Of a stretch of 64,000 bases of DNA, positions 32,871 to 59,563 are shown one piece after another; the stretch's first letter is position 1; every line of letters starts with the position of its first letter. Position numbers and translations under genes: made by a program. The DNA lies in contig JACQCF010000002.1 of NCBI GenBank assembly GCA_016201795.1, positions 45,122-109,121 of the forward strand. The letters are read 5' to 3'. This stretch comes from Candidatus Omnitrophota bacterium. Its GTDB lineage: Bacteria; Omnitrophota; Gorgyraeia; Zapsychrales; Fredricksoniimonadaceae. The notes beneath the pieces were generated by a model. The model was not told where the DNA came from, did no database searches, and saw only the letters and a list, made by a program, of their open reading frames with translations.

Positions 32871-32910
32871 ACTTATAAGTTACATCACTCCGTTCTGTAA
32901 CTTATGTGCT
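32870..32910 (+). promoter_or_regulatory. Inverted repeat (GCACTTATAAGTTACA ... TGTAACTTATGTGC) immediately upstream of the metE RBS; candidate operator
   Basis: 14-16 bp arms with a 10-bp perfect core ATAAGTTACA, about 15 nt upstream of the AGGAG RBS of metE. Confidence 0.35.
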
Positions 32911-32924
32911 CATTAAGGAGAGGC

Positions 32925-35090
32925 ATGAAAACTTACGCTTACGGATTTCCGCGGTTGGGAGAAAATCGCGAATATAAGAAAGCCATCGAAACTTTTTGGG
33001 AAGGTGAGGGCTCAGAAGAAGGGCTCAACCATACACTCCATGAGCTTCAGGCGAATATGCTGCAGATCTATGCCTCTGCCGTGAATGTTTTCCCCGTCGG
33101 TGAAATGACCGCTTATGATCCTATGCTCGATACGGCCGTTATGCTGGGGGTTTATAAGCCTAAGAATTTACAGGAATATTATGAATTGTGCCGCGGCGCA
33201 GGCGCTTTGGAGATGACCAAATGGTTCAATACCAATTACCATTACCTGGTGTCTGATTTTTCCGCCGTTAAAAGCCCGTCTTTTGAACTACATTGGAATA
33301 AACCCCAGCAATACCGTGAACGTTTTGGCAAGGGCATCCCTTATGTGATTGGCCCATTTACTTTCCTTAAATTAAGCAAAGGGTTAAGCAAAACACAATT
33401 CAAGTCAGCCCTGGAAGATTTGACCGGAGTTTACCGATCTTTGTTCACTTCTTTGCAAGAAGTGCACGTGGATGAGCCTGCTTTGGTGCTGGAACTTTTC
33501 AGCGATGAGATTGAGGGCGTTAAGAAGGCCTATGAAATTCTTGGCCAGTCTGCTAAGGTCCACCTTTTTACGTATTATGAGCAGGTAGATTTTTTAAAGC
33601 AATTGTACGATCTACCAGTGGCCTCGTTGGGGTTGGATTTTGTGCACGGTATTAAAAATCTTCAGACCATTAAAAAATACGGTTTTCCTAAAGACAAGAC
33701 TTTAATCGCCGGTGTGGTGGACGGGCGCAATATCTGGAAGAATGATATTCGCCATTCGGTGGAGACGCTGAAAGCTTTGAGCCGTCAGGCAAAATCTATT
33801 TGGGTTTCCAATGCCGGTCCGTTGTTCCATCTTCCCATCACCACCGAAGGGGAACATCTGGATTCCCGCCTGATGGGGAATTTGGCGTTTGCCAAACAAA
33901 AGCTGCAAGAGATTGGTACCATCGCGGCGTGCGCGCAAGGACGTCAGAAGGTGAAGGTGCCGTCTGATTCTGGTGTGCGCGTATTAGGTCAGAACAAGAA
34001 AGTGCAGACCAGGATTAAGACGCTTACCACCAAAGATTTTAAGAAATTGGTGCCGCTAGCCAAGCGTCGGGCGATTCAAGATAAGATTCTGCATCTTCCT
34101 TCTTTTCCGACGACAACCATTGGCAGTTTTCCTCAGACCCCAGAGGTTCGCAAATACCGGGCCGATTACCGTGCCGGCCGTATTACCGAGCAAGAATATA
34201 ATGCCTTTGTGCAGAGGGAAATCCGTCAATTGATGAAGTTTCAAGAGGAACAGGGGTTGGATGTTCCGGTCCACGGAGAATTCGAACGCACCGACATGGT
34301 GGAGTTTTTTGCCGAACAGTTGGACGGCGTTGCCACCACGGCCAATGGCTGGATTATTTCTTACGGCACGCGTGCGTACCGGCCGCCTATCATTTTTGGA
34401 GATATCTCCCGTCCCAGACCCATGACCGTCAAGGAAATCGTTTATGCCCAATCTTTAACCAATAAGCCGGTCAAGGGTATGCTCACCGGCGCAGTTACCA
34501 TCATCGCCTGGAGTTTTGTGCGCGAGGATATTCCCATTAAGGATGTAGCTTACCAGATCAGTTTGGCCTTACGGGATGAAATTCATGATTATGAGAAAGC
34601 TGGTATTAAAATTGTCCAGGTGGATGAGCCGGCCATCCGGGAAAGGGCCCCCATCAAACGGGGCGATTGGCCAAAATATTTCGATTGGGCCATCAAATCC
34701 TTCCGTCTGGCTACCAATACTGCTCCCGAGACCCAGATCCACACGCATATGTGTTATTCGGAGTTTGGGGAGATCATCAAGCAGATTGACGCCATGGATT
34801 TTGATGTCATTTCCATCGAGTCCACCCGCAGCCGGGGAGATATCATCAAAAACTTCGAGCGGATTGATTTTAAGAAACAGATTGGTCTTGGCGTTTGGGA
34901 CATCCATTCGCCGGCCATTCCTACCGTTGAGCAGATGAAACAGGTGGCTCAGAGGGCGTTGAGGGTTATTCCCAAAAGAAATTTCTGGATCAATCCTGAT
35001 TGCGGTCTCAAGACCCGCGGATGGCCGGAGACCGAGGCATCTCTAAAAAATTTGGTCACCCTGGCCAGTCAGTTGCGTCATCAGAAGTAA
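32925..35090 (+). CDS. metE: 5-methyltetrahydropteroyltriglutamate--homocysteine S-methyltransferase (cobalamin-independent methionine synthase)
   Basis: N-terminal KTYAYGFPRLGENREYKKA, a two-domain length of 720 aa, and the C-terminal zinc site region (HMCYSEFGEII...DCGLKTR). Confidence 0.9.
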   Translation: MKTYAYGFPRLGENREYKKAIETFWEGEGSEEGLNHTLHELQANMLQIYASAVNVFPVGEMTAYDPMLDTAVMLGVYKPKNLQEYYELCRGAGALEMTKWFNTNYHYLVSDFSAVKSPSFELHWNKPQQYRERFGKGIPYVIGPFTFLKLSKGLSKTQFKSALEDLTGVYRSLFTSLQEVHVDEPALVLELFSDEIEGVKKAYEILGQSAKVHLFTYYEQVDFLKQLYDLPVASLGLDFVHGIKNLQTIKKYGFPKDKTLIAGVVDGRNIWKNDIRHSVETLKALSRQAKSIWVSNAGPLFHLPITTEGEHLDSRLMGNLAFAKQKLQEIGTIAACAQGRQKVKVPSDSGVRVLGQNKKVQTRIKTLTTKDFKKLVPLAKRRAIQDKILHLPSFPTTTIGSFPQTPEVRKYRADYRAGRITEQEYNAFVQREIRQLMKFQEEQGLDVPVHGEFERTDMVEFFAEQLDGVATTANGWIISYGTRAYRPPIIFGDISRPRPMTVKEIVYAQSLTNKPVKGMLTGAVTIIAWSFVREDIPIKDVAYQISLALRDEIHDYEKAGIKIVQVDEPAIRERAPIKRGDWPKYFDWAIKSFRLATNTAPETQIHTHMCYSEFGEIIKQIDAMDFDVISIESTRSRGDIIKNFERIDFKKQIGLGVWDIHSPAIPTVEQMKQVAQRALRVIPKRNFWINPDCGLKTRGWPETEASLKNLVTLASQLRHQK

Positions 35091-35102
35091 TTTATATTTG
35101 GA

Positions 35103-35193
35103 GTCATTGCGAGGAGCCGAAGGCGACGAAGCAATCCCAAAAGAATTAATTTTTGTTGAGATTGCTTCGCTCCCTACGGTCGCTCGCAATGAC
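35103..35193 (+). mobile_element. MITE-like palindromic repeat element (copy 2) in the convergent metE/metF intergenic region
   Basis: The same termini as copy 1 (GTCATTGCGAGGAGC...GAAGCAATC / GATTGCTTCGCTCCCT..GGTCGCTCGCAATGAC), with a longer AT-rich central spacer. Confidence 0.7.
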
Positions 35194-35202
35194 ACGTATC
35201 TT

Positions 35203-36048
35203 TTAGCGGCGGACCTCTTTCAGGATAATGTCCGTCGGAGAAATTTTATTGAGGGTATAGAAGTGCAGGCCGGGGGCACCTTGATCAAGAAGCTCTCGGC
35301 ATTGCTCAACAGCAAAACGAATACCTGCCTCTAATGTTTTAGCCGGATCATCTGCGAGGGGTTTAAAAATCTCATGGACCTTCACCGGGATAGAAGCCCC
35401 GCAGAGTAAGCAAAATCTCACCAAAGCCTGATAATCGGTAATAGGTAAAATTCCGGGAATAACGGGTTTGTTCACACCTAATTTTTTCAAACGCGCGATA
35501 TAATCAAAATAATCCTGATTGTCAAAAAAAAGCTGGGTGATGACGTAATCCGCTCCCGCATCAATTTTGGCTTTGAGATGCTGCGCGTCCACCTCGCGAT
35601 TGGGGGCTAACATATGCCCCTCGGGGAAACCGGCCACTCCAATGCCAAAATAAGAGTTAAAATGTTGACGGATAAAGGCCACCAGCTCACTGCTGTATCG
35701 AAAGTTTTTTGGCCCCGGCTTCCAGTCGGGATGATCTTTGGGAGGGTCTCCCCGCAAAGCCAGGACATTGCTGATTCCCCGGCGTTTGATCTCTTCGAGA
35801 ATCGTTTTAATTTCGTCTTTGGTATGTAGGACACAGGTTAAGTGAGCCACCGCCTTGATATGATGTTTATTTTGAATATGTTCTACAACGTCCAATGTTT
35901 TCTCGCGGCTGCCGCCTCCGGCGCCGTAGGTACAGGAGATGAAATCCGGTTTTAAGCCAGCTAGCTGATCAATGATCCCCAGCAATTTCACGTACCCCTC
36001 GGGGGTTTTGGGGGGGAAGAGTTCAAAAGAAATAGTGGGAAAGTTCAT
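35203..36048 (-). CDS. metF: 5,10-methylenetetrahydrofolate reductase
   Basis: N-terminal NFPTISFELFPPKT and the LRGDPP FAD-binding signature. The start is placed at the ATG at 36048-36046, overlapping the stop of the upstream membrane gene. Confidence 0.88.
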   Translation of the reverse strand: MNFPTISFELFPPKTPEGYVKLLGIIDQLAGLKPDFISCTYGAGGGSREKTLDVVEHIQNKHHIKAVAHLTCVLHTKDEIKTILEEIKRRGISNVLALRGDPPKDHPDWKPGPKNFRYSSELVAFIRQHFNSYFGIGVAGFPEGHMLAPNREVDAQHLKAKIDAGADYVITQLFFDNQDYFDYIARLKKLGVNKPVIPGILPITDYQALVRFCLLCGASIPVKVHEIFKPLADDPAKTLEAGIRFAVEQCRELLDQGAPGLHFYTLNKISPTDIILKEVRR

Positions 36049-37142
36049 CGATATGCGCCTGTTGGCATATTCCATTTAATTTTATTTAGGAAAAAGATGA
36101 AGATAGGATCCCAACACCAACCAGTGAAGAGGGGAAAAATAGCCATGACCCACACATATTGGCGCTGGAGAAACCAATAGCCGGTTACAGCATCTGCAAT
36201 CATTAATAACAGGATCGGCAAAATAAAAATAGTCATTAAGAAACCAGCTACGATCAAACGGTCTTGTTTGGGCCACCATAACCGTAGCGCAATCCCGATT
36301 AACAGTAAATAGAAGAGTTTAAATCCGATTAAATTGGTCATTACTGCTTTTAGAAAATTAATCGGATCTACCAAGGGGTTAGGAATAAACTGAAAAACAT
36401 CAAGTTCGAGGTACCTATGGTTATAGAAGGGGCTGGATGGATTGCCTTTATTATAGTAGAGCCATAGAAGTAACCCAACAAAGCTTAAGCTTAACCAGAA
36501 ACGCCAGCGGCGTTGAATGAACGGGATAAATCCTGTTTGCCGATAATCCCTTAATAAGAAAAATAATCCCCAGCAACATATGATGAGCAAGCCATACGGA
36601 TGATAAATGATTGTTAGAATTAAAGCGATCCAATATAAGATACATTGCATCCGTGAGGGGGATAGTAAGGGATTCATAAGGCTTTCAAGGATGTAGAAGG
36701 TGGAAAGCCCTAAGGCGGCCAGCATGCTATAGGGCCTAAGCTGCAGGGCATGATAAATCAGTTGTCTGTGCAATGCAAACATGGCAAAGGTCATTAGCCA
36801 ACTGAGGGGGTGTTTGAGATAGCGTTGGCAAAGTAACCCCAGCACATAGAAGCCTAACAGGGTTGATAAGAAATGGGGGATTGCCACTCCCCATTTGTTC
36901 TCTTTGAAGATTTGTATAAAAGGATAGGTGAGTAGGTAATCGCCGGGAAAAGAATGCGATTCGCCGTAATCAGCCGTAAGCCAAAATGGCTTAAGGGGCC
37001 CCACCGTATGTTTATATTGGCACAATTCATCTGTAGACCATTCGTGCTGCCTGTAGATATCTATGCGCCACCAAAGACCGAGCAAGGTAATAACGAAAAC
37101 AGAGATTAGCAACCATTTAGGCGGGGATGATATTTTTTGCAC
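36045..37142 (-). CDS. Hypothetical polytopic membrane protein (GT-C-like topology), co-transcribed with metF
   Basis: An N-terminal TM, then an acidic loop (WSTDELCQYK...ADYGESHSFPGDY), then at least 9 TM helices. Its stop overlaps the metF start (ATGA). Confidence 0.4.
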   Translation of the reverse strand: MQKISSPPKWLLISVFVITLLGLWWRIDIYRQHEWSTDELCQYKHTVGPLKPFWLTADYGESHSFPGDYLLTYPFIQIFKENKWGVAIPHFLSTLLGFYVLGLLCQRYLKHPLSWLMTFAMFALHRQLIYHALQLRPYSMLAALGLSTFYILESLMNPLLSPSRMQCILYWIALILTIIYHPYGLLIICCWGLFFLLRDYRQTGFIPFIQRRWRFWLSLSFVGLLLWLYYNKGNPSSPFYNHRYLELDVFQFIPNPLVDPINFLKAVMTNLIGFKLFYLLLIGIALRLWWPKQDRLIVAGFLMTIFILPILLLMIADAVTGYWFLQRQYVWVMAIFPLFTGWCWDPIFIFFLNKIKWNMPTGAYR

Positions 37143-37201: not shown

Positions 37202-37229
37202 TTGACTATCTTAGGGTTTTATTTATAAT
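37202..37229 (+). promoter_or_regulatory. Sigma70-type promoter of the EPS-type MarR regulator gene
   Basis: TTGACT (37202-37207), a 16-nt spacer, then TATAAT (37224-37229). Confidence 0.5.
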
Positions 37230-37247
37230 GTTCAAAAATTGAACATT
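37227..37247 (+). promoter_or_regulatory. Perfect 9-3-9 palindrome AATGTTCAA-AAA-TTGAACATT overlapping the -10 element; candidate (auto)regulatory operator
   Basis: A 21-bp perfect inverted repeat lies between the -10 and the ATG at 37252 of the winged-helix regulator. Confidence 0.55.
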
Positions 37248-37251
37248 TCCT

Positions 37252-37797
37252 ATGCCCACGACCAATCTTAATGAACATGAATTTGAACTGGTGAACATCG
37301 TCGGTTCTCAGTTGGCCGCCAATCAGCGCGATTTGTCCCGCCAGATGAATCTCTCTTTGGGGATGACCAATATGTTGATGAGGCGGCTTGTCACCAAAGG
37401 ATATATCCGCATCAAACAACTCAACCAGCGCAAGGTGAAGTATATTCTAACCCCTAAAGGTTTTGCGGAAAAGATGCGCAAGTCTGTTCACTACACGCTT
37501 AAAACGATTAATTCTATAGGGTTAATTAAAAAACATCTTTCAAAAATCCTGGGGTCCTTGTATCAGGAGGGAGAAAGAAAATTTTATATCTTAGGGGAGT
37601 CGGATCTGGCGGCCTTGATAGAAATAGTATTAAGGGAACAATGTCAGCATGATTATACCGTTGTTCATATTAAAGACAGGATCCAGGCAACAGGGGAAGG
37701 AGTGATTTTGGTTTGTACTGATCAGCAAGCCAATGGTTCTTCTCCCACTGCATTTAAAGAGATTAATTTGATTGAAAATCTTGCCTATCATGTGTGA
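37252..37797 (+). CDS. Winged-helix transcriptional regulator, EPS-associated MarR-like family
   Basis: EHEFELVNIVGSQLAANQRDLSRQMNLSLGMTNMLMRRLVTKGYIRIKQL...KYILTPKGF matches the EPS-associated MarR (wHTH) pattern, with a C-terminal extension of unknown function. Confidence 0.55.
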   Translation: MPTTNLNEHEFELVNIVGSQLAANQRDLSRQMNLSLGMTNMLMRRLVTKGYIRIKQLNQRKVKYILTPKGFAEKMRKSVHYTLKTINSIGLIKKHLSKILGSLYQEGERKFYILGESDLAALIEIVLREQCQHDYTVVHIKDRIQATGEGVILVCTDQQANGSSPTAFKEINLIENLAYHV

Positions 37798-39602
37798 GCT
37801 CATGGGGCGTATACGGAGATGAGAACTTGTTATCATTAGGTGTTTTTTTACAACGTTTTGGTTATCTGTTGAGGTTGTTGACTACAACGCCCTACTGGGG
37901 CCTTATCTGCATGTTGCAGTTTGTCAGCGGCTTGGCTAGTTTTTTGGGGTTGCCGCTTCTGATTCCTGTGCTGGAAATGATGCAAAGCAATACAGTCTCT
38001 GTGCAGGGGGGCAGTTACGCTAAATTTGTCATTCCTTTTTTGCAGGCATTAGGCCTGAAATTTAATTTTAACAGCATGTTGTTTATGGCTGCTGTACTTA
38101 TGTTATTGGGTCAGCTTTTGGTCAATGCCTCTTCTTTGGTCTGTACCTTTGTCAAAGAGGATCTGCTGGCAGAATACCGCAAGAAGATATTCAGGGCTTA
38201 TGCCTCGGTCGACTGGCAGTGGTTGACGGATCACCATTCGGCCCGTATGTATCATGCGGTGGTGAGGGAGGCCGAGCAGGCCTGCGAGGCCCACATGAAT
38301 GCCCAGCGGATCTTTATCAATTTTTTTCAGATTGCCGTTTATCTGACGATTTCCCTACGCCTCTCCTGGCAGATCACGCTGCTGGCGGTGGGGGTGTATG
38401 TTCTTTTGGGTTTATGCAATGCGGTTAACTTGAATTTCATCAATCAATTTGCCGAGGTGCTTAATCAGAAATTTAAGCAATTTTCGAATGACGCCGTAAG
38501 TTTTCAGCACAATAAGAAATTCATTAAAGTAGCCCTTTTGGGGGAGCGGTTTTTGGCCTCTTTTACCCATGCCATCGACCAGATGTGCCAACTCCGTAAA
38601 CGCCAGATGCTGCACGTTGAACTGCAACGTGCCTGGAACATGATGAGCACGCTGATCCTTTTAGTTGTTATGATTTTTTTCCATCAGGCATTGTCGCTCA
38701 ATTATGCCACCTTGTTATTGATCCTGTTTGTGTTCATGCGGCTGGCGCCTCAATTCGTAGCGCTAGCGGATGTTTATGCGGCTTTGGACATGAGCATCCC
38801 CGTGCACAAGTCTCTGCAGTCACATTTACAGACGCTGGAAGATCACCGGGAGAAAAGTGGTAGCCGGGCTTTCGTACCGGGAAGCGCTTTGCGTTTTGAG
38901 GAAGTGAGCTTTGCTTATCCTAATCAGCCGGCCCTTTTTTCCAATTTACATTTGTCCATTGAGCCTCATACCATGGTTGCCATTGTGGGGAAATCGGGCT
39001 GCGGGAAGTCGACGATTTTGGATTTGCTTTTGGGGTTGCTTGATATCAAAGGAGGAGTCATTTATTATGGTCAAATCCCGCACCATGAGCTTGAAAAAGA
39101 TTCCCTTCGGCGGCACGTTGCTTTTGTCGGACAAAGGCCTTCTCTTTTGGATGGAACCTTGCGGGAGAACTTAATTGTGGCAAAACCCTCCGCGACCAAG
39201 CAAGAGGTTCTGGATGTTTGTCGTCGTGTGCATTTGAAGGAATTTATTGAGGAGCTTCCTCAGGGACTGGATACGGTGGTGGGAGAAAACGGCATCAAAC
39301 TGTCCGGCGGACAGAGGCAGCGGATTGCTCTGGCGCGTTGTTTGCTGCTTGCACCTGACATCCTCATCCTTGATGAAGCTACCAGTGAATTGGATTCGGA
39401 GTCGGAGGCGGTTATTCAAAATACTTTAAAGGAAATGCGTTCGCAAATGACAATCATCATCATTGCGCACCGGCTTTCGACGGTCAAGGCAGCGGATAAA
39501 ATTTATGTCATCGAGCATGGGACGGCTTGTGAGTCGGGCGCCTATGAAGAACTATTGGCGCGCAAGGGGAGATTTTACGATTTGGTTTCTTTGCAGCATT
39601 AA
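37794..39602 (+). CDS. ABC exporter, fused permease/ATPase (MsbA-like type I exporter)
   Basis: Six-TM N-terminal half, then Walker A GKSGCGKST, the signature LSGGQRQRIALARC and Walker B ILILDEATS. Confidence 0.85.
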   Translation: MSSWGVYGDENLLSLGVFLQRFGYLLRLLTTTPYWGLICMLQFVSGLASFLGLPLLIPVLEMMQSNTVSVQGGSYAKFVIPFLQALGLKFNFNSMLFMAAVLMLLGQLLVNASSLVCTFVKEDLLAEYRKKIFRAYASVDWQWLTDHHSARMYHAVVREAEQACEAHMNAQRIFINFFQIAVYLTISLRLSWQITLLAVGVYVLLGLCNAVNLNFINQFAEVLNQKFKQFSNDAVSFQHNKKFIKVALLGERFLASFTHAIDQMCQLRKRQMLHVELQRAWNMMSTLILLVVMIFFHQALSLNYATLLLILFVFMRLAPQFVALADVYAALDMSIPVHKSLQSHLQTLEDHREKSGSRAFVPGSALRFEEVSFAYPNQPALFSNLHLSIEPHTMVAIVGKSGCGKSTILDLLLGLLDIKGGVIYYGQIPHHELEKDSLRRHVAFVGQRPSLLDGTLRENLIVAKPSATKQEVLDVCRRVHLKEFIEELPQGLDTVVGENGIKLSGGQRQRIALARCLLLAPDILILDEATSELDSESEAVIQNTLKEMRSQMTIIIIAHRLSTVKAADKIYVIEHGTACESGAYEELLARKGRFYDLVSLQH

Positions 39603-39639
39603 AAATCCCACTTAAAAACGCGGGATGGAGGGGGAATGC

Positions 39640-40635
39640 ATGATCAATGGCAAAACAATTTTGATTACAGGCGGTACGGGCTCTTTTGGTAATAAATTTA
39701 CGGAGGTAGTTTTAAAGAAATTTAAGCCTAAAAAATTGATTATTTTTAGCAGGGATGAATACAAGCAGCATGAAATGGGTAAAAAATTTTCCGATGATAA
39801 ATATCCTATTCGGTATTTTCTAGGGGATGTGAGAGACCAGGGACGGTTAAACCGCGCCTTTGAAGGGGTGGATTATGTGGTGCATGCCGCGGCGCTCAAG
39901 CAGGTGCCGGCGCTGGAATACAATCCCATGGAGGCAGTCAAGACCAATATCCTTGGCGCGGATAATATTGTCGAAGCAGCCATTGACCAGGGTATAAAGA
40001 AAGTAGTTGTCCTTTCTACGGACAAGGCTTGTAATCCCGTTAATCTTTACGGGGCTACAAAATTGGCGGCGGAAAAAGTGTTTGTCGCGGCCAATGCCTA
40101 CGGCGGCGGCCGTGTCAAATTTTCCGTCGTGCGTTACGGGAATGTCATGGGTTCGCGCGGGAGCGTGATCCCGTTTTTTTTGAGTTTAAAGCATCAGGGC
40201 GCCAAGGAATTCCCCATTACCGATGAACGTATGACCCGCTTTTGGATCACGCTTAAGCAAAGCGCAGAGTTGGTGTTGACGGCGTTGAATTTCGGTATGG
40301 GCGGGGAATGTTTCATCCCTATTATCCCGTCGATGAGGGTGGTTGATTTAGCGCGGGCCATTGACCCTAGGGCAAAATTTAAGATCATCGGTATCCGTCC
40401 CGGCGAGAAATTGCACGAGTCGCTGATTTCCGAGGAGGAAGGGTATAATACCAGGATTTTTAAGGATACGTATGTCATCCTGCCGCAATTTTTTGATAAT
40501 GAACGAGTGCTTCGGTTTTATGAGAAATGTCCCGTCGTCGAACAGAATTTTCTCTACCGCAGCGATAAAAACAAACAATGGATGGATGTGCAAGATTTAA
40601 GAAAGGTTATTGCCCGTGATGATTCCTTACGGTAG
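39640..40635 (+). CDS. pseB: UDP-N-acetylglucosamine 4,6-dehydratase (inverting)
   Basis: GKTILITGGTGSFG...FSRDEYKQHEM...YGATKLAAEK matches PseB/FlaA1 closely along its length. GGAGGG RBS before the ATG at 39640. Confidence 0.85.
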   Translation: MINGKTILITGGTGSFGNKFTEVVLKKFKPKKLIIFSRDEYKQHEMGKKFSDDKYPIRYFLGDVRDQGRLNRAFEGVDYVVHAAALKQVPALEYNPMEAVKTNILGADNIVEAAIDQGIKKVVVLSTDKACNPVNLYGATKLAAEKVFVAANAYGGGRVKFSVVRYGNVMGSRGSVIPFFLSLKHQGAKEFPITDERMTRFWITLKQSAELVLTALNFGMGGECFIPIIPSMRVVDLARAIDPRAKFKIIGIRPGEKLHESLISEEEGYNTRIFKDTYVILPQFFDNERVLRFYEKCPVVEQNFLYRSDKNKQWMDVQDLRKVIARDDSLR

Positions 40636-41791
40636 ACAGACTATTGATGACAAAGACATCCGTGCGGTGGTGCAGGTTTTGCGCTCTGATTGGTTGACCC
40701 AGGGGCCGAAAGTCCTGGAATTCGAAGAAGCGCTATGCCGTTATACCGGTGCAAAATATGCCGTGGTGGTTTCTTCGGGTACGGCTGCATTGCATATCGC
40801 GTGTTTGGCGGCCGGTTTAGGTAAGGGGCAAGAGGCCATGGTCCCTGCCAATACGTTCGTCGCCACCGCCAACGCCGTTTTGTACACAGGGGCGCAGCCC
40901 GTTTTCGCGGATATCGACCATGAAACAGGTAATATCGACCCGCGGGCCATTATGAAAATGATGAATCGCACCACCAGGGCGATTATACCGGTGCATTTCG
41001 GCGGCAACCCTTGCGCCATGGAAGACATTTACGGTTTGGCCAAGAAAAGAAAGATCACGATTATCGAAGACGCGTGTCATGCTTTAGGCGCAGCGTATAA
41101 GTCTGGGGGTAAATGGTGGAAAATCGGTTCCTGCCGTCATTCGGATATGACGATTTTTAGTTTTCATCCTCTTAAAGCCATTACCACGGCCGAAGGCGGA
41201 GCAGTGCTGACTAATGACAAAAGGCTTTATCAGCGGTTTCTTAAGTTGCGCAGTCACGGGGTAACGAAGGAGCCATCTGATTTTGAGAACCGCAACGCCC
41301 ATGACGTGGGGCCGTGGTACTACGAGATGCAGGAGCTTGGTTTTAATTTCCGAATCACGGATCTGCAATGTGCGCTGGGGGTTTCCCAGCTTAAAAAAGC
41401 GGATGGGTTTGTCCGTAAGCGCACCCGGATCGCACAGCTTTATCGCAAGGCCTGGGCCCACGGCTCATACTTTGATCTTCCGTCGCAACAGAACAATGGC
41501 GTGTCGGCATGGCATTTGTTCCCCATCCGGCTTAAAGGGCGTTTTGTACAGCGCCGGAAAGAAATGTTTTGTTGGTTAAGAGATTTGGGGTTGGGGGTGC
41601 AGGTTCACTATATTCCGGTGTATTGGCAGCCGTATTATGCCCGATTAGGGTATGCCAAGGGATCGTGTCCGGTGGCGGAAGATTTTTACCGTCGGGAAAT
41701 CAGCCTGCCGTTGTATCCGGCCATGACGTCTGCCGATGTAAGGCGCGTGATTGAATGCGTAAATAAAGCAGGAGCAGAGGTTTTAAAATAA
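40610..41791 (+). CDS. pseC: UDP-4-amino-4,6-dideoxy-N-acetyl-beta-L-altrosamine transaminase (DegT family)
   Basis: IPYGRQTIDDKDIRAVVQVLRSDWLTQGPKV N-terminus typical of PseC. PLP lysine block FSFHPLKAITTAEGG. Confidence 0.8.
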   Translation: MPVMIPYGRQTIDDKDIRAVVQVLRSDWLTQGPKVLEFEEALCRYTGAKYAVVVSSGTAALHIACLAAGLGKGQEAMVPANTFVATANAVLYTGAQPVFADIDHETGNIDPRAIMKMMNRTTRAIIPVHFGGNPCAMEDIYGLAKKRKITIIEDACHALGAAYKSGGKWWKIGSCRHSDMTIFSFHPLKAITTAEGGAVLTNDKRLYQRFLKLRSHGVTKEPSDFENRNAHDVGPWYYEMQELGFNFRITDLQCALGVSQLKKADGFVRKRTRIAQLYRKAWAHGSYFDLPSQQNNGVSAWHLFPIRLKGRFVQRRKEMFCWLRDLGLGVQVHYIPVYWQPYYARLGYAKGSCPVAEDFYRREISLPLYPAMTSADVRRVIECVNKAGAEVLK

Positions 41792-41805
41792 GGAGCAAAG
41801 ATAGA

Positions 41806-42549
41806 ATGGCAAGAAAAGGAAAATTTGTTGCGAGTATAGAGGCAAGGGTTGGCTCAACACGATTACCCGCTAAAGTGTTGCGGGAGATTATGGGAAGGTC
41901 CATGCTGGAATTGATGATCGAACGGGTCAAGAAAGCCCGACGTATCGACGAAATTATTGTGGCGACTTCTGTTAACCCTAAGGACGACGTGTTGGAGCAG
42001 TTGGCTCTGCGCATGGGAGTTAAATGTTACCGCGGCAGCGAAGAAGATGTTTTGTCCAGGGTATTGGAGGCAGTCAAAAGCGTTGCGGGGGATCATATCA
42101 TTGAGCTCTGGGGAGACACGCCGCTTATTGATCCGGCCATTATTGATGATGCCGTCCGGTATTATCAGGATAATGACTTTGACTGTGTGGGGACGGACAA
42201 AGGGTATCCTTGGGGTATGAGCATATTAATTTTTCCCACCGCCATTTTGGAGGAAGTCCATGGGATCACCAACGATCCCGTTGACAGGGAAAATGTTTCT
42301 AATTATATTTATGAACATCCACAGAGGTATACGATTAGTAATTTGCCATGCCCTCGACATTTATACCGGCCTGAGGTACGTCTGACGGTTGATGAGGGTC
42401 CTGATTTTGAATTCGTATCGAGGATTTTTGAAGCGCTACATCCCAATAATCCGTATTTTGACACCCAGAACATTCTCATGTTTTTGGATGCCCATCCCGA
42501 ACTATTGGAGATCAACAAGACGATTAAACAAAAGAAATTGAGGGTATAG
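41806..42549 (+). CDS. pseF: Cytidylyltransferase of the SpsF/PseF family (putative CMP-pseudaminic acid synthetase)
   Basis: ARVGSTRLPAKVL...IDEIIVATS motif of CTP_transf_3 (NeuA/SpsF-like) enzymes. Located inside the pse cluster. Confidence 0.55.
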   Translation: MARKGKFVASIEARVGSTRLPAKVLREIMGRSMLELMIERVKKARRIDEIIVATSVNPKDDVLEQLALRMGVKCYRGSEEDVLSRVLEAVKSVAGDHIIELWGDTPLIDPAIIDDAVRYYQDNDFDCVGTDKGYPWGMSILIFPTAILEEVHGITNDPVDRENVSNYIYEHPQRYTISNLPCPRHLYRPEVRLTVDEGPDFEFVSRIFEALHPNNPYFDTQNILMFLDAHPELLEINKTIKQKKLRV

Positions 42550-42554
42550 AAATT

Positions 42555-43568
42555 ATGAAGTTAAAAGCAGCAGTCATAGGTTGCGGGCGTATCGCCATCG
42601 GTTTCGATGACGACCCCAAACGCAAGATGGTAGCGACCCATATCGGCGCATATCAGCATGTGAAAGGCGTTGAGGTCGTCGCCGTGTGCGATGTGGACGG
42701 TAGCCGTGTGGATAAAGTATGCCGCAAGCGTGGTATCACCAAAGGTTATACGGATTACCTGAAGATGTTACGCCAGGAAAAAGTCGATATGGTCAGCGTG
42801 TGCACGCCGCCCAAGACACATGCGTCCATTGTGCTGGACATTGCCCGGCACGGTTTAGCTAAAGCAATTTTTTGCGAAAAACCCATGGCTCATTCGCTTC
42901 AGGATGCCAGGGCCATGATCGACGCCTGTGCCGAGCACAATATTATATTACAGATTGACCATCAGCGCCGTTTCGATCAGATGCATCAGGCCATCAGGGC
43001 AAAAATTCAAAGAGGCGCGTGGGGTAGGGTTCAGCGTGCGAATTTTTATTATTCAGCGGGAGTGCGTAATACTGGTTCTCATATGTTTGACCTTTTGCGT
43101 TTCTTTTTTGGGGATGCCGACTGGGTGCAGGCCTATGCGAGCGCCAATCCCTCACGCCGGCCTGATGATCCGAACCTAGACGGGTTTGTGCGTTTTCCCA
43201 ATGGGCTTTTGGCGTCCTTTCAGGCTTTAGATCATACGCGATATTTAATTTTTGAATTGGATTGTTATTTTCAACGGAGCCGTTTGGTTCTTAAGCACAG
43301 CGGCTTTGACGCTGAATTTTATAAGGTAGGGAAAAGTTCGTTTTTCAGCGGTTACCGCGAGTTGGAAAAGGGCAAGGCTCCTTTTAAGAAGGATTATGAG
43401 AGGTCATTGATGGTTCGCGGGGTCGAAGAATTAAGCCGTTGCCTGGGCAATGGGAGAAAAAGTATTTCTTCAGGGGAAGATGGTTTGCGTGCGATGGAAC
43501 TCATTGAGTTAAGTATCAAATCTGCGCAACATCATGGAAAACAGATGTCAGTATCGCCTAAGAGATAG
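42555..43568 (+). CDS. Gfo/Idh/MocA family NAD(P)-dependent oxidoreductase
   Basis: LKAAVIGCGRIAIG Rossmann N-terminus, the EKP motif (CEKPMAHS) and a C-terminal alpha/beta domain. Confidence 0.7.
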   Translation: MKLKAAVIGCGRIAIGFDDDPKRKMVATHIGAYQHVKGVEVVAVCDVDGSRVDKVCRKRGITKGYTDYLKMLRQEKVDMVSVCTPPKTHASIVLDIARHGLAKAIFCEKPMAHSLQDARAMIDACAEHNIILQIDHQRRFDQMHQAIRAKIQRGAWGRVQRANFYYSAGVRNTGSHMFDLLRFFFGDADWVQAYASANPSRRPDDPNLDGFVRFPNGLLASFQALDHTRYLIFELDCYFQRSRLVLKHSGFDAEFYKVGKSSFFSGYRELEKGKAPFKKDYERSLMVRGVEELSRCLGNGRKSISSGEDGLRAMELIELSIKSAQHHGKQMSVSPKR

Positions 43569-43574
43569 AAGGAG

Positions 43575-44858
43575 TTGTTGATGAAAGTTTTAGCCGTTCA
43601 TGGTGGGGATAAAGTTAGGACAAAACCGTTTTTTACGGGTGGTGCCATTATTGGAGAGGAAGAGCGACGGCGCGTTAAAGAGGTCCTAGACAGCGGTATT
43701 TTGTCTGGATTCCTGGCACAGGCTGACGCGAAGTTCTTAGGTGGTAAACAGGTTCTAGAATTTGAGAAGATACTCAGGAATTATTTTAGCATGCCTTACG
43801 CCGTGACAGTCAATTCGGCAACAGCTGGTCTTCATGTGGCCTTGGGAGCTTGTGGAGTCTCTCCCGGTGATGAGGTGATCGTGAGTCCATATACCATGTG
43901 CGCTTCCGCCACCGCGATTGTTATGATGAATGGCGTTCCGGTTTTTGCGGATATTAATGAACACAATTTTTGTTTCGATCCTGAAAGTGTCCGCCGATGT
44001 ATCACCCCACGCACCAAAGGTATTGTCGTGGTGCATCTTTTTGGTGGGGCAGCGGATATGGATGCCATCATGGTGATTGCCAAGGAACATAACCTTTTTG
44101 TAGTTGAGGATTGCGCCCAGGCGCCGGGTGCCAAATATAAAGGCCGGCATGTGGGGACATTCGGCGATGCGGGGGTTTTTAGTCTCAATCAGAACAAGAC
44201 GATTACCTGCGGTGAGGGTGGATTTGTGCTTACGAGGGATGCAAAGATCGCTTTGCGGATACAGTTGATGCGCAATCACGGCGAAGTGGTGGTACAACAG
44301 ATGAATGTGGAAGATATTTCCAATATCGTCGGTTTTAATTACCGCATGACAGAGTTGGAAGCGGCGGTGGCTATCGGTCAATTTAAAAATTTAGATACTT
44401 GGAACACCCATCGGCGGAATTTGGCCAATTACTTGACCAAGCAACTATCCAAGTTTGATAGCTTAGAATGTCCCAATGTACCGTTGGATATTGAACATTC
44501 GTATTTTGTATATCCTATTAAATTAAAGGTTGGCCAATTGGGCGTTAGCAGGGATACTTTTCTTAAGGCAATCCATGCAGAAGGGATTCCTTTGAGCGGT
44601 GGGTACGTGAGACCGATCTATTGGGAACCAATGTTCCAGAAAAAGATTGCTTATGGTAGGCAGGGATATCCGTTCACACCTCCCGTTTACGCAGGTTCTG
44701 TGGATTACAGCCGAGGATTGTGCCCAGTGTGTGAACGGATGTATGAACAGGAACTGATGTTGACGCCTGTTTGCCGTTACCCGAATACTAAAGAAGACAT
44801 GGATGATGTCGTTCATGCGTTTGATAAGGTATTGTCTCATTTAGACGAGTTAAAATAA
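43575..44858 (+). CDS. DegT/ArnB-like PLP-dependent aminotransferase (long form, 427 aa)
   Basis: ATAGLHVAL, VSPYTMCASATA, EDCAQAPGA and the Lys block FSLNQNKTITCGEGG. Confidence 0.7.
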   Translation: MLMKVLAVHGGDKVRTKPFFTGGAIIGEEERRRVKEVLDSGILSGFLAQADAKFLGGKQVLEFEKILRNYFSMPYAVTVNSATAGLHVALGACGVSPGDEVIVSPYTMCASATAIVMMNGVPVFADINEHNFCFDPESVRRCITPRTKGIVVVHLFGGAADMDAIMVIAKEHNLFVVEDCAQAPGAKYKGRHVGTFGDAGVFSLNQNKTITCGEGGFVLTRDAKIALRIQLMRNHGEVVVQQMNVEDISNIVGFNYRMTELEAAVAIGQFKNLDTWNTHRRNLANYLTKQLSKFDSLECPNVPLDIEHSYFVYPIKLKVGQLGVSRDTFLKAIHAEGIPLSGGYVRPIYWEPMFQKKIAYGRQGYPFTPPVYAGSVDYSRGLCPVCERMYEQELMLTPVCRYPNTKEDMDDVVHAFDKVLSHLDELK

Positions 44859-44877
44859 ATTCAAAGAGACATGTTTT

Positions 44878-46341
44878 ATGATTAGAGTTCTGATCTTAAC
44901 CGAAGGCGGTGGTATTTTAGGCTGGGGGCATGTAGCCAGGTGCTGTGCGATTACGCAAGGACTGGAGAAATATGGCTGTTTATGGGAAGTTTTCGTCAAT
45001 GCCCAAGGGGATTTACCGTCTTTTACTGACGGGTCCAACTGGAGTCGGGAGGATTGGCGCAATATCAATGAGCGTTTGGCAGGCCTTATCAGCTCGTCGG
45101 ATTACGTGATTGTTGATTCATATATAACGTCCGCAGATATTTATCAACAGATTAGTTCTTTGAATAAGAATTTGGTCGTTATCGACGATAATAATCGGAT
45201 TAGTTATCCGCCATGTATTGTTGTTAACCCGAATGTGTATGGGGACCACATGCCATATGCGGACAAATATGAAGTATGGGCAGGCCTACGGTACATTCTT
45301 TTACGTGAGCCATTTTGGAATGCGCAGCCTAAACCCGTAGGCTCTGTGCATGCACTTTTATTGGTACTGGGTGGTGGTGATTCTCATGGGTTAAAGAAGG
45401 AGATCTTGCGGTTTTTGGTGCGACACTATCCGCTATTAAAGAAGTATGTCGTTGTCTGTGTCAGGGAAACATCATTGGAAGATATAACCAAAGAAGCGGA
45501 TGGTAATACATCCTTCTTTAAGAATCTAGATGCCAGAGCCATGTGCGATCTGATGGGGCGTGCAGATATGGCTATATCTGCTGGTGGGCAGACGCTCGGT
45601 GAACTTACTAGGTTGGGAGTGCCGACTGTCGCCATAAGCTTGGCAGATAATCAAAAACGCAATATCGCGGCATGGCAAGCGCAAGGCTTTGTACAGGTAG
45701 CGGATGAGAAAGACAGCGTCGGGATACAACAGGTCATCGGCACATACATCGAACGTTTAAACAGCCTTAAGCAGGATCGCAACGCAAGTCATGTGGCTAG
45801 CCTTGTGGATGGTCAAGGCGTCAAACGTTTGGTTGAAAATTTAATAGGCCGTCGCACATTGTCTTTGCGTAGGGCTTCGCTCGAAGACTGTGAAGATATT
45901 TGGAGATGGCGTAATGATGTTTCGGTGCGCAAAAGTTCTTTTTCACAAAAAGAGATTCCATTTGACGGTCATAAGAAGTGGTTTGCACAAAAAATGAATG
46001 ACCCTGGTGTTATTTTTTATATTGCCCAGCATAAACATGAAGGTGGTGTAGGCCAGGTGCGGTTTGAAATTCAGCAGGATAAGTCCGCATCCGTTCATGT
46101 GAATATGAACCCACAGTACATTGGTCGCGGGTTGGGGGCTTATGTGATTGCCGAGGCCACGCGGACGCTTATGAAGGAGCGCCCCACGGTTTTATCTATT
46201 CGGGCCGAGGTTTTGGCGGATAACATTGCTTCACGGAAAGTTTTTGAGAAGGCGGGTTATCAGTTGCAGGGCAATGAGATCAAGGAAGATAAACAGATCA
46301 TTGTATTTTCGGTGAAAAAACATGAAACCCATATCCTTTAA
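44878..46341 (+). CDS. pseG: PseG-PseH fusion: UDP-2,4-diacetamido-2,4,6-trideoxy-beta-L-altropyranose hydrolase fused to a GNAT N-acetyltransferase
   Basis: N-terminal GT28-like PseG region (ILGWGHVARC..., LVLGGGDS, AISAGGQTLGEL). A C-terminal roughly 160-aa GNAT domain (QVRFEIQQD...NPQYIGRGLGAYVIAEA...NIASRKVFEKAGYQ). Confidence 0.7.
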   Translation: MIRVLILTEGGGILGWGHVARCCAITQGLEKYGCLWEVFVNAQGDLPSFTDGSNWSREDWRNINERLAGLISSSDYVIVDSYITSADIYQQISSLNKNLVVIDDNNRISYPPCIVVNPNVYGDHMPYADKYEVWAGLRYILLREPFWNAQPKPVGSVHALLLVLGGGDSHGLKKEILRFLVRHYPLLKKYVVVCVRETSLEDITKEADGNTSFFKNLDARAMCDLMGRADMAISAGGQTLGELTRLGVPTVAISLADNQKRNIAAWQAQGFVQVADEKDSVGIQQVIGTYIERLNSLKQDRNASHVASLVDGQGVKRLVENLIGRRTLSLRRASLEDCEDIWRWRNDVSVRKSSFSQKEIPFDGHKKWFAQKMNDPGVIFYIAQHKHEGGVGQVRFEIQQDKSASVHVNMNPQYIGRGLGAYVIAEATRTLMKERPTVLSIRAEVLADNIASRKVFEKAGYQLQGNEIKEDKQIIVFSVKKHETHIL

Positions 46342-47356
46342 ACAGTTAAAAGAGTGTTTTATTATCGCCGAGATTTCTGCCAATCACGGTCAGAATTTCC
46401 AACGGGCCATTCAATTGATTAAATTGGCCAAAGAATGTGGTGCGGATGCGGTTAAGTTTCAATGTTATACACCGGATACATTAACGATCGATGTCGACAA
46501 TAAATATTTCCAGATCAAACATCCCCAGTGGGGTGGGCAGACGCTTTACCGCTTGTATCAGCATGCTTATACGCCTTGGGAGTGGTTTCCGCGGTTAAAG
46601 AAGGCCGCCCATGAGGCGCGCATTCATTTTTTTTCTACAGCTTTTGACCGTACCTCTGTTGATTTTTTGGAAAAGATAGGGGTGGATTTGCATAAGATCG
46701 CTTCTTTTGAATTGAATGATTTACCGCTTATTGATTACGTTGCGCGTACGAAAAAACCTCTTATTTTATCAACAGGGATGGCCTCTTTAGAAGAAATTCG
46801 TGAGGCGGTGGCTGTTGCTCGCAAATCGGGGGCGAAGGATTTGGCTTTGTTGAGGTGTGTAAGTAATTATCCAGCGGATCCTAAGGATATGAATTTGCGT
46901 ACGATGGTAGATATGCATAAGAGGTTTAAATGTTGTGTGGGGCTCTCGGACCATACATTGGGGGTAGGGGTAGCGGTGGCTTCGGTGGCGTTGGGGGCCA
47001 TGGTTATTGAAAAACATTTTACGCTTTCACGCAAGATCAAAACCCCGGATAGTTTTTTTTCACTGGAGCCGGAAGAATTAAAAGAAATGGTTGATAATGT
47101 GCGTTTGGCGCAAAGGGCTTTGGGGCATGTTTCGTATGCTTGTACACCGGCAGAGAAAGCCAGTCTTAAATTCCGGCGTTCCTTGTTTGTTGTCCAGGAC
47201 ATCAAGAAAGGTGACGTTTTTTCCCTTTTAAATATAAGGTCTATACGCCCCGGGCATGGCCTGTCGCCCAAACACTGGGACACAACCATCGGCAAAAAGG
47301 CGAAATGCGCTGTTAAACGAGGGACTCCGTTAACGATGTCCATGATAGGGATTTAA
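46322..47356 (+). CDS. pseI: Pseudaminic acid synthase (NeuB family, with SAF domain)
   Basis: IIAEISANHGQNFQRAIQLIKLAKECGADAVKFQ N-terminus, the GLSDHT motif and a C-terminal SAF domain. Confidence 0.85.
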   Translation: MKPISFKQLKECFIIAEISANHGQNFQRAIQLIKLAKECGADAVKFQCYTPDTLTIDVDNKYFQIKHPQWGGQTLYRLYQHAYTPWEWFPRLKKAAHEARIHFFSTAFDRTSVDFLEKIGVDLHKIASFELNDLPLIDYVARTKKPLILSTGMASLEEIREAVAVARKSGAKDLALLRCVSNYPADPKDMNLRTMVDMHKRFKCCVGLSDHTLGVGVAVASVALGAMVIEKHFTLSRKIKTPDSFFSLEPEELKEMVDNVRLAQRALGHVSYACTPAEKASLKFRRSLFVVQDIKKGDVFSLLNIRSIRPGHGLSPKHWDTTIGKKAKCAVKRGTPLTMSMIGI

Positions 47357-48310
47357 ATGGAAATTAAGGGATGTTCACAAGAATATTGGGATTTGTTTGT
47401 GGATGCCTCTGCTCAAGGGACGGTTTTTAATAAGAGTTTTTTCTTGAAGAGTTACGGCCATCCTGTCAGCTATTTGATTTGTTATAAAGGTGAAGAGGTA
47501 GTGGCCGGCTTCGGGCTTGTCAAAGAAGGCGATAATATCCGTCCAATGCCGTATTCTGTGTTAGGGGGAATTATTTTTAAGGATTTGGTGGAGCTTAATA
47601 ATTACCGCCGCAATGAAACGATTTTTATGGCGCTGGAGGCATTTGCCCAGTATTTATTTGATCATTATACCGAGGTGGACTTCACCAATCATTGGGATAT
47701 TACGGACATGCGTGCATTTGACTGGGTCAATTATCACGATCGGCAAAAAGGGTATTATCAAATTTTTCCGCGTTACACCAGCCTGCTGGATATTTCAGAT
47801 CCGGCTAATACCGACGGTTATGCGCGTAAACGCATTCGTGAGCTGGATAAAGGTGTGGATGAAGGGTATAAATTTTTTACCAGGGGAATTGATGATATCA
47901 GTCTTCTCAGTCGGCTGCATGAGATGAATTTTATCCGCCAGGGAATTACAAGGTCCGAGGAAGAAAAGCGAGCACTGGTGCATATTTGTGAAAACCTCAT
48001 GAATGCCCAAGCAGGGACATTGCTGGCCACTTATGTGAATGATGAACCGGCGGTGGTGAGTTTTTTTGTCTACGATCAACACAGGGCCTATCATTTGTTT
48101 GTGGGGGCTGATCTTGATTTAAAGGATTTGGGCGTGGGAACCAAAAATTTTTATGACAGTTGTTTATTTTTAAACAGTCAACTTGGGTATAAGGAATTGG
48201 ATTTGGTAGGGGCCAATAGCCCATTAAGGTCAAATTATAAATTAAGTTACGGTGGTCGGCTGGTGCCGTATTTTCGGATCAAGAAAGTTCCTCCGCAAGG
48301 GCAAGGATAG
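47357..48310 (+). CDS. FemAB-like GNAT-fold acyl/aminoacyl transferase (Acetyltransf_6-like)
   Basis: Roughly 317 aa with FemAB/BioF2-like GNAT features. Located directly after pseI. Confidence 0.4.
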   Translation: MEIKGCSQEYWDLFVDASAQGTVFNKSFFLKSYGHPVSYLICYKGEEVVAGFGLVKEGDNIRPMPYSVLGGIIFKDLVELNNYRRNETIFMALEAFAQYLFDHYTEVDFTNHWDITDMRAFDWVNYHDRQKGYYQIFPRYTSLLDISDPANTDGYARKRIRELDKGVDEGYKFFTRGIDDISLLSRLHEMNFIRQGITRSEEEKRALVHICENLMNAQAGTLLATYVNDEPAVVSFFVYDQHRAYHLFVGADLDLKDLGVGTKNFYDSCLFLNSQLGYKELDLVGANSPLRSNYKLSYGGRLVPYFRIKKVPPQGQG

Positions 48311-48322
48311 GGTATTAGATTT

Positions 48323-49372
48323 ATGAAGCATCATTTGTATTATGAAAGTTTGGATTGGGGTACTTATTGGAAGAATTTTTTCCGTCAGGACAAGGACCGT
48401 TTTTTATGCGCGTTACGGGAAGATTTTGCGACAGAGGATATTTTTTTAACTCGTTCGGGGCGTACCGGTATTATTTTATCGTTAAAGGCGTTTGGTTTGA
48501 CCAGGGAAGATGAAGTTTTGGTGCCGCCGTTTATGAGTACTTGTGTTTTGGACTCGGTCAATCAGGTGGCCATGTCTTCCCGGCGTTTGACGGATCGCAC
48601 TAAGGCGGTTTTATTTTATCACCACTGGGGATACTCTCAGAATTATGCGAAAGCGCAGGAGCTGTTGCGTTCCAGAAAATTATGGGTTATTGAGGATTGT
48701 GCTCATGGGGTGTGGGGTAGATCTCAGGGAATATCGATGGGGGCTTTTGGCCATACCGCTATCTTCTCTTTGTCGAAAATTTTTGAGATGACTTATGCCG
48801 GCGCCTTAAGGATCAATGACGTGGCATTGCTTTCCAGAATAGAAGAAGCGTTAAGTGCTAAGGTTTCATTGAAGGATGCATGCGAATCATTATCGGGGGA
48901 ATTAACATATCTGAGTTTTTATAATACCCCCCTGGCACGACGCAAGGAAACCGACATGTTAGTTGGCATATCAAAATGGTATGCGACGCTTTTAATGTAC
49001 CCTTGTTTGACAACCGTCAGGGGTCGTCTAGCCCGTCATAAGGCAGAATTGCACGAGGTGTTCGGCAACCAGAACAAACATTTTTTGTCTTTATTAAAAA
49101 ATGCCCGTAATCGTTCATTTATGCTGCCGGGCGATGAAGAAGCAACGATGGCGCCGTTATGTTTTCCCATCCTATCGGATGATGAGGGTTTTTTGAACAG
49201 CGTTGATCAATGGCTTAAACAGAGGAATATCTTTACCGGTATTTATCATTTTGACGTCAACCGTTGCATGTTTAACCCGGATTACAAAAAATGCGTGCCT
49301 GTCCCATTGTATGCTTCTTTGTCAGACGGGCTTTATGAAGATTTTATCAGGGATTTCAAAGGGGGATTTTGA
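48323..49372 (+). CDS. Divergent DegT-like PLP-dependent enzyme
   Basis: REDEVLVPPFMSTCV and an FSLSK Lys block resemble the DegT fold, but the protein is shorter and the motifs diverge. Confidence 0.35.
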   Translation: MKHHLYYESLDWGTYWKNFFRQDKDRFLCALREDFATEDIFLTRSGRTGIILSLKAFGLTREDEVLVPPFMSTCVLDSVNQVAMSSRRLTDRTKAVLFYHHWGYSQNYAKAQELLRSRKLWVIEDCAHGVWGRSQGISMGAFGHTAIFSLSKIFEMTYAGALRINDVALLSRIEEALSAKVSLKDACESLSGELTYLSFYNTPLARRKETDMLVGISKWYATLLMYPCLTTVRGRLARHKAELHEVFGNQNKHFLSLLKNARNRSFMLPGDEEATMAPLCFPILSDDEGFLNSVDQWLKQRNIFTGIYHFDVNRCMFNPDYKKCVPVPLYASLSDGLYEDFIRDFKGGF

Positions 49373-50103: not shown

Positions 50104-50106
50104 TTA

Positions 50107-51717: not shown

Positions 51718-51720
51718 GGG

Positions 51721-53393: not shown

Positions 53394-53402
53394 AGGAGAC
53401 AC

Positions 53403-56370: not shown

Positions 56371-56380
56371 AGGATCACTG

Positions 56381-59560: not shown

Positions 59561-59563
59561 AGG

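Follow-up and report, generated by a model that had tools for sequence, protein, structure and literature searches.

Escherichia coli MarR, acting at marO, and its relatives are dimeric winged-helix proteins that bind a palindromic operator overlapping their own promoter and start site, and the resulting autorepression is relieved by ligand. Canonical MarR proteins are about 140 to 150 amino acids (aa) long and dimerise through their N- and C-terminal helices. The RfaH/ops and Bacteroides UpxY-type systems exert another form of control, acting on the elongation of long glycan operons. Among protein families, TIGR04176 (MarR_EPS), whose members of about 105 aa consist of a winged helix and a C-terminal helix, has thousands of members of its type in marine metagenomes; no study of this family, of its binding site or motif, or of glycan regulation in Omnitrophota was found in the literature searched, although such work may exist elsewhere.

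The locus described here lies in a 64,000-nucleotide (nt) stretch of DNA from a Candidatus Omnitrophota bacterium (the window, in whose positions all coordinates are given unless another locus is named). At positions 37252 to 37797 of the plus strand, it encodes a 181-aa regulator whose N-terminal winged helix is related to TIGR04176 and is followed by a long helix and then a C-terminal alpha/beta domain. As in the classical MarR systems, a winged-helix protein is paired with a palindrome overlapping its own core promoter, and a dimer and negative autoregulation are predicted; unlike in those systems, the winged helix is followed by one long helix and then a small alpha/beta domain. TIGR04176 is the best-scoring family of the regulator, both head polysaccharide or nucleotide-sugar clusters, and both have the same GTTCA/TGAAC half-sites just after the -10 element of their own promoters. 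They differ in the number of operators, which is one for the window regulator and usually two, in tandem, for the small marine TIGR04176 forms, and the half-sites are separated by N5 in the window as opposed to N4 in Rhodobacterales.

By sequence profile, the solved structure closest to the regulator is FabT, a streptococcal repressor of fatty-acid synthesis from the MarR family (PDB 6jbx), which is also its second NCBIfam match, but the similarity is very weak (E values of 0.02 and 2.5e-4) and confined to the helix-turn-helix, and the pathway and operator are different; FabT is of use solely as a structural guide to the winged helix. Like RfaH/ops and UpxY, the locus has a regulatory device of its own where a long polysaccharide operon begins, but those devices control elongation, whereas the window element is predicted to control initiation. 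Neither a NusG paralogue nor a leader ops element was seen at the window promoter, and GCGGTAGC occurs in the window only at 10496 and 56441, which is a chance rate.

The regulator and the gene cluster that follows it

The match of the regulator to TIGR04176 (49.6 bits; E of 3.2e-13) covers residues 7 to 98 only and falls below the curated cutoff of 88, and the protein departs from the single-domain architecture of that family both in its length and in its extra alpha/beta domain (residues ~108 to 180), which is conserved in 30 homologues. Its setting agrees with the exopolysaccharide or glycan locus that characterizes the family, with genes for an ABC exporter, PseB, PseC, and PseI directly downstream. 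Aligned with a small TIGR04176-type member, the regulator is 29% identical over 95 aa that take in the whole winged helix (pairwise E of 9e-14). In Pfam, it scores 23.6 against HTH_24 (PF13412; threshold of 21.9) and 22.2 against MarR (PF01047; threshold of 24.6); its placement in the winged-helix class is supported, and strict membership in Pfam MarR is marginal. The regulator is clearly a relative of TIGR04176, longer and sub-threshold, and not a strict member. The original prediction of an EPS-type MarR regulator is corrected to this extent.

A protein identical to the regulator is present in a Candidatus Omnitrophota metagenome-assembled genome (MAG), and about 800 homologues of 175 to 200 aa are 57 to 74% identical to it. 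The helix-turn-helix and the wing are nearly invariant in an alignment of 31 homologues, in all of which the DNA-reading part retains S35, L36, G37, N40, M41, R45, L46, and other residues. The N termini of 30 aligned homologues line up with the ATG at 37252, which supports this start codon. No Pfam family matched the C-terminal domain, either in the regulator or in any long form. The AlphaFold model of the regulator has a mean pLDDT of 75, and the winged helix is poorly modelled (pLDDT of 50 to 70), making a docking-type argument impossible. A Foldseek comparison with the PDB returned nothing below an E value of 0.1, with only generic Rossmann/PRTase-like matches for the C-terminal domain, and sequence-profile searches of the PDB gave weak MarR/FabT matches at most.

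The regulator stop codon is overlapped by the open reading frame (ORF) of an ABC exporter with fused permease and ATPase (HepA/MsbA-like; 37794 to 39602, plus strand). Pseudaminic acid genes follow on the same strand at 39625 to 47356, encoding PseB, PseC, a cytidylyltransferase, an oxidoreductase, a second aminotransferase, a PseG/PseH-like fusion, and PseI. When the six-enzyme pathway (PseB, C, H, G, I, and F) was scored, PseB (482.7; cutoff of 407.75), PseC (508.3; cutoff of 423.5), and PseI (463; cutoff of 340.25) all exceeded their curated cutoffs, and the PseG/PseH-like fusion and the cytidylyltransferase fell below theirs. The fusion is a single 487-aa ORF (44878 to 46341) that resembles PseG in its N-terminal part (117.6 bits) and PseH in its C-terminal part (54.3 bits), with each score below the curated cutoff; it may combine the hydrolase and acetyltransferase of pseudaminic acid synthesis in one protein.

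About 15 more tightly packed plus-strand ORFs extend from 47357 to 62857 and, with gaps or overlaps of a few nucleotides, are probably the rest of the same transcription unit. In total, about 25 same-strand genes follow the regulator to at least 62857 at spacings of -20 to +22 nt, and no plus-strand terminator-like site was found in the short gaps of the cluster. Because the regulator stop codon overlaps the exporter ORF and these genes are so tightly spaced, it is plausible that the exporter and the pseudaminic acid genes are coregulated with the regulator. From gene spacing, we infer that the whole ~25-kb run is cotranscribed; internal promoters within coding sequence are possible. The arrangement recurs in orthologous loci, in which the next gene lies within about -4 to +30 nt of the regulator. 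Among 75 cases, this gene encodes a PseB/CapD-type dehydratase in 32; in the others, its product is a nucleotidyltransferase, an ABC exporter, or a different enzyme of a sugar pathway.

Upstream of the regulator, the window carries metF together with metE (32904 to 36075). Among the 80 Omnitrophota loci compared below, metF lies just upstream of the regulator in 12, and metE does so in the window and in locus L024. The genes 3' of the regulator differ between genomes. The region resembles a glycan island of variable content whose chromosomal position recurs among genomes and whose constant 5' end is formed by the regulator and its operator. Between the met genes and the regulator is a divergent minus-strand gene (36045 to 37142) for a 365-aa multipass membrane protein that has no Pfam or NCBIfam match. 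Homologues of this protein (40% identity) adjoin the regulator in the same divergent position in only 2 of the 80 loci (L039 and L079), indicating that the gene is not part of the conserved unit.

The promoter palindrome and its counterparts in Omnitrophota

The palindrome spans 37227 to 37247 and has no strand assigned. Its two 9-nt arms, AATGTTCAA (37227 to 37235) and TTGAACATT (37239 to 37247), are 100% complementary across a 3-nt spacer, and AATGTTCAA-AAA-TTGAACATT is therefore the perfect 9-3-9 inverted repeat that had been predicted. The near-consensus promoter noted alongside it was likewise confirmed: the plus-strand hexamers TTGACT (-35; 37202 to 37207) and TATAAT (-10; 37224 to 37229), separated by 16 nt, match the consensus at 11 of 12 positions and form the top promoter-like (sigma-70-like) match within 36 to 40 kb. 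The palindrome had been placed between this -10 element and the start codon of the regulator. It does end 4 nt before the ATG of the 181-aa ORF, but the AAT with which it opens is also the last three nucleotides of the -10 hexamer. With the usual 5 to 9 nt between a -10 element and a start site, transcription would be predicted to begin at about 37235 to 37238 on the plus strand, inside the operator, and to yield a leader of ~14 to 17 nt; no Shine-Dalgarno sequence is visible between the palindrome and the ATG.

By itself, the palindrome is statistically unremarkable, as perfect inverted repeats of this kind (arms of 9 nt or more, spacers of 0 to 10 nt) number 5 in the 64 kb, compared with 3.8 ± 1.9 expected from Markov-1 random sequences. 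Its meaning therefore had to be judged by comparison with other genomes, and its significance derives from its position and from its conservation in orthologues. The further sites that were to define a wider regulon did not appear in the window, in which searches for 7-3-7 (up to 3 mismatches) and 6-5-6 (up to 2 mismatches) versions recovered no second operator and otherwise only chance-level matches. Three direct TGAAC half-sites (at 37262, 37274, and 37282, within 37262 to 37286) lie just inside the regulator coding sequence, the first of them 22 nt from the right half-site of the operator, which is the spacing seen in tandem operators elsewhere. The trio stems from the conserved codons for N-E-H-E-F-E-L-V-N and is probably a coding coincidence.

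Scanning one genome per species provided 80 Omnitrophota loci whose encoded relatives are 50 to 69% identical to the regulator. Upstream of the conserved E-R-E-F-E-L motif, these loci repeat a single layout of TTGACA, ~16 to 17 nt, TATAAT, and (T)GTTCA-N5-TGAAC(A). Absence of the palindrome from orthologous promoters had been named beforehand as grounds for giving up the operator interpretation, but a perfect GTTCA-N5-TGAAC core occurs within 250 nt upstream of the regulator in 71 of the 80 loci and a core with at most one mismatch in 73; one of the exceptional loci without a core offers only 41 nt of upstream sequence. Across the 627 kb made up of the 80 loci and the window, there are 84 perfect cores, compared with 0.68 expected from composition, and 77 of the 84 are situated within 260 nt upstream of a regulator. 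A motif-free count of hexamers in the 160 nt upstream gave the same picture, with TATAAT (63 of 80), TGAACA (63 of 80), TGTTCA (62 of 80), and TTGACA (60 of 80) as the top four, each of which was found in only 0 to 4 of 68 control regions. A -35 element with at least five of six matches accompanies 71 of the 84 cores.

The conserved part of the site is smaller than the palindrome in the window. Beyond the core, only a flanking T (72 of 84) and a flanking A (70 of 84) are conserved, and the spacer is rich in A and T but otherwise free; conservation among sites is only weak for the outer AA/TT and inner A/T of the 9-3-9 repeat. On this basis, the predicted functional unit is TGTTCA-N5-TGAACA (6-5-6; 37229 to 37245, no strand assigned), with half-site centres 11 bp apart, and not the full 9-3-9 repeat.

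The position of the site relative to the promoter is also maintained, with 0 to 1 nt separating the end of the -10 element from the G of GTTCA in 41 of the 84 sites. The predicted geometry of an autorepressed operator recurs in that the perfect cores of the orthologous promoters typically stand 0 to 1 nt after a TATAAT that is itself preceded by TTGACA. The distance from the site to the ATG varies among loci from ~4 to 75 nt and reaches 2.8 kb. The largest distances come from two loci in which the regulator is the fourth (L045) or third (L046) gene and the site lies ~2.8 kb upstream, at the head of the operon, behind its own TTGAC(T/A)/TATA(A/T)T promoter. This arrangement indicates that the site follows the promoter of the transcription unit containing the regulator. 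The palindrome overlaps the core promoter and the predicted start site of the regulator's own unit, in a geometry that is conserved among orthologues. Two MAGs (CAZAPN01, with loci L016 and L041, and CAYING01, with L056 and L078) each contain two regulator paralogues, and every paralogue has an operator with the same core, making cross-regulation between two glycan loci possible in these genomes.

The operator in the wider family

A metagenome scan with the pattern TATAATGTTCA-N5-TGAACA returned at least 127 sites on at least 120 contigs, whose neighbouring genes were searched with a profile built from the N-terminal 100 columns of the Omnitrophota alignment. Of the 127 sites listed, 62 lie within 400 nt of a superfamily gene, which is downstream in 51 cases and divergent in 11; for 15 more, the contig encodes a homologue farther away. 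The sequence downstream is shorter than 1 kb at 21 others, and at the remaining 29 it extends for 1 kb or more without a family gene. Among the matches listed, what follows a site with no family gene close by is often a glycan gene (nucleotidyltransferase, CMP-sugar synthetase, NeuB, formyltransferase, or CmcI-type methyltransferase), as would fit a regulon and would also fit an unlinked regulator.

Half of the adjacent genes among the matches listed encode the long form, and half encode proteins of ~100 aa. The small neighbours score 125 to 144 bits on TIGR04176 (above the cutoff that the window regulator misses) and are bona fide members of that family. In AT-rich marine contigs, the small forms among the matches listed usually have two sites ~21 to 24 nt apart, with one copy filling the spacer between the -35 and -10 elements and the other covering the -10 element and the start site. 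Two further sets of loci were retrieved starting from proteins, independently of the DNA pattern. In a marine genome of 25% GC (L201), perfect sites occur at both -36 and -15 relative to the ATG of the small MarR_EPS gene, compared with 0.01 expected. All seven Rhodobacterales plasmids with genes annotated as "MarR family EPS-associated transcriptional regulator" have GTTCA-N4-TGAAC 83 to 102 nt upstream (5 perfect and 2 with one mismatch, compared with 0.04 expected). The marine and plasmid sites show that the half-site is conserved from Omnitrophota to Alphaproteobacteria, with the spacing differing by one base, and the site thus co-occurs with the regulator gene across lineages.

A third architecture of ~200 to 245 aa joins a MarR_EPS-like winged helix to a larger C-terminal alpha/beta domain (e.g., IALYGCGEVAELAHLFLQ...) and was observed, with the same promoter-operator arrangement, at ten metagenome loci (L087, L090, L102, L112, L123, L124, L144, L152, L157, and L193). 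No Pfam family matched its C-terminal part. A Rex-like NAD-sensing domain, which inspection of the sequence had suggested for forms of ~215 aa, was supported by no search and was dropped.

In Rhodobacterales and at some marine loci, the MarR_EPS gene adjoins a gene for a NusG/RfaH paralogue, and an ops-like GCGGTAGC occurs in the leader. On the Rhodobacterales plasmids, a conserved tGCGGTAGCC(g)TGG that is similar to the RfaH-recruiting ops element lies between GTTCA-N4-TGAAC and the MarR_EPS start codon (locus positions ~3940 to 3990 in L204, ~3950 to 3978 in L206, ~1440 to 1468 in L207, and ~1440 to 1465 in L209). L204, L206, and L207 also carry a NusG/RfaH-family gene upstream, in opposite orientation, and NusG-like ORFs of 165 aa follow the small regulator at three metagenome loci (L097, L128, and L129). 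This association suggests paired control of glycan operons at initiation and elongation.

A model of self-repression and its alternatives

The reading that we favour, and consider likely, is that the palindrome is the operator of the adjacent winged-helix regulator, which would repress itself and thereby gate the glycan operon. A dimer of the MarR_EPS-like regulator would place one recognition helix in each TGTTCA half-site, and the half-sites would be presented on the same face of the DNA because their centres are one helical turn (11 bp) apart. The site would span ~-9 to +12 of a strong sigma-70-type promoter, such that a bound dimer should prevent RNA polymerase from binding, from forming an open complex, or from escaping the promoter. 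Occupancy would then repress synthesis of the regulator itself and of the ABC exporter, the pseudaminic acid enzymes, and the rest of the ~25-kb glycan run, which has no other visible promoter gap, and repression would presumably be relieved by a signal sensed through the C-terminal alpha/beta domain.

Both the binding of the regulator to the site and the repressive sign of its action are deduced from sequence comparison. The invariant half-site is matched by invariant DNA-reading residues; as neither the half-site nor the recognition helix varies, the two show no covariation by which protein and site could be connected, and the link rests on their co-occurrence. As to sign, the second copy of the site between the -35 and -10 elements of the small forms also points to repression. 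All told, the palindrome is very probably the site by which the regulator represses its own promoter. The comparative evidence for this interpretation is strong, and the mechanism is an ordinary, textbook case of a self-repressed winged-helix regulator.

The alternative that survives best, although we consider it improbable, is that the operator serves a different, unlinked dimeric regulator, such as a global regulator of envelope glycans, and that the winged-helix gene is merely the first in the operon. In its favour are the absence of covariation between site and protein and those metagenome promoter-operators that lack a family gene over 1 kb or more downstream and precede genes of the NTP_transferase, CTP_transf_3, NeuB, and formyltransferase families. 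But site and family are found together in the long forms of Omnitrophota, in the small marine forms (both upstream and divergent), and on the Rhodobacterales plasmids, and the site tracks the operon of the regulator even where the regulator is an internal gene, so that an unlinked factor would need to have been coinherited with the family everywhere.

A second alternative, to which we give slightly less weight, accepts binding by the regulator but has it activate or act in both directions, or has the site serve as a promoter-proximal element needed for initiation. Some MarR/SlyA-type proteins do activate transcription, and this general precedent is what speaks for it, nothing direct having been found at these loci. 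The placement of the site is difficult to reconcile with activation, as it covers the -10 element to about +12, and in the small type a second copy occupies the -35/-10 spacer; a dimer bound at these positions would compete with RNA polymerase. Moreover, a promoter so near consensus should need no activator.

It is very unlikely that the palindrome functions as an RNA hairpin in the 5' leader, ending 4 nt before the ATG and affecting mRNA stability or translation. The sequence would fold (centroid of -8.7 kcal/mol; z of -2.0 relative to shuffles), but its left arm overlaps the -10 element, so that a transcript from this promoter holds the right arm only, and read-through from upstream is precluded by the divergent orientation of the neighbouring gene. 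The conservation of the half-sites around a free spacer, with no compensatory changes, is the pattern of recognition by a protein and not of a stem, the distance to the ATG varies too widely among loci for such a role, and no Rfam match was found. That the palindrome arose by chance in AT-rich intergenic DNA, as the chance-level frequency of such repeats in the window would permit, is refuted by its conservation in the orthologous promoters, the excess of cores over expectation, and the hexamer count.

Beyond self-repression at this one locus, a broader possibility can be advanced tentatively. TGTTCA-N4/5-TGAACA could be the shared operator of a very large superfamily, comprising TIGR04176 MarR_EPS and longer, sensor-like forms, that gates surface-glycan and nonulosonic-acid operons across unrelated lineages, among them Omnitrophota, Rhodobacterales, and abundant AT-rich marine bacteria. 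In Omnitrophota, the alpha/beta domain might then sense a pathway metabolite (e.g., a nucleotide sugar) and provide feedback on a variable glycan island at a conserved chromosomal site.

While the mechanism brings no surprise, the added value of this analysis is the family-wide motif. For the "EPS-associated MarR" family as a whole, for which no published binding site or function was found, the motif is a candidate recognition sequence. It can be used in regulon prediction and to mark the 5' boundary and the promoter of variable glycan islands in MAGs. For Omnitrophota, a phylum known almost entirely from metagenomes, the palindrome and the gene that it precedes constitute a concrete candidate pair of cis-element and regulator for the synthesis of surface glycans.
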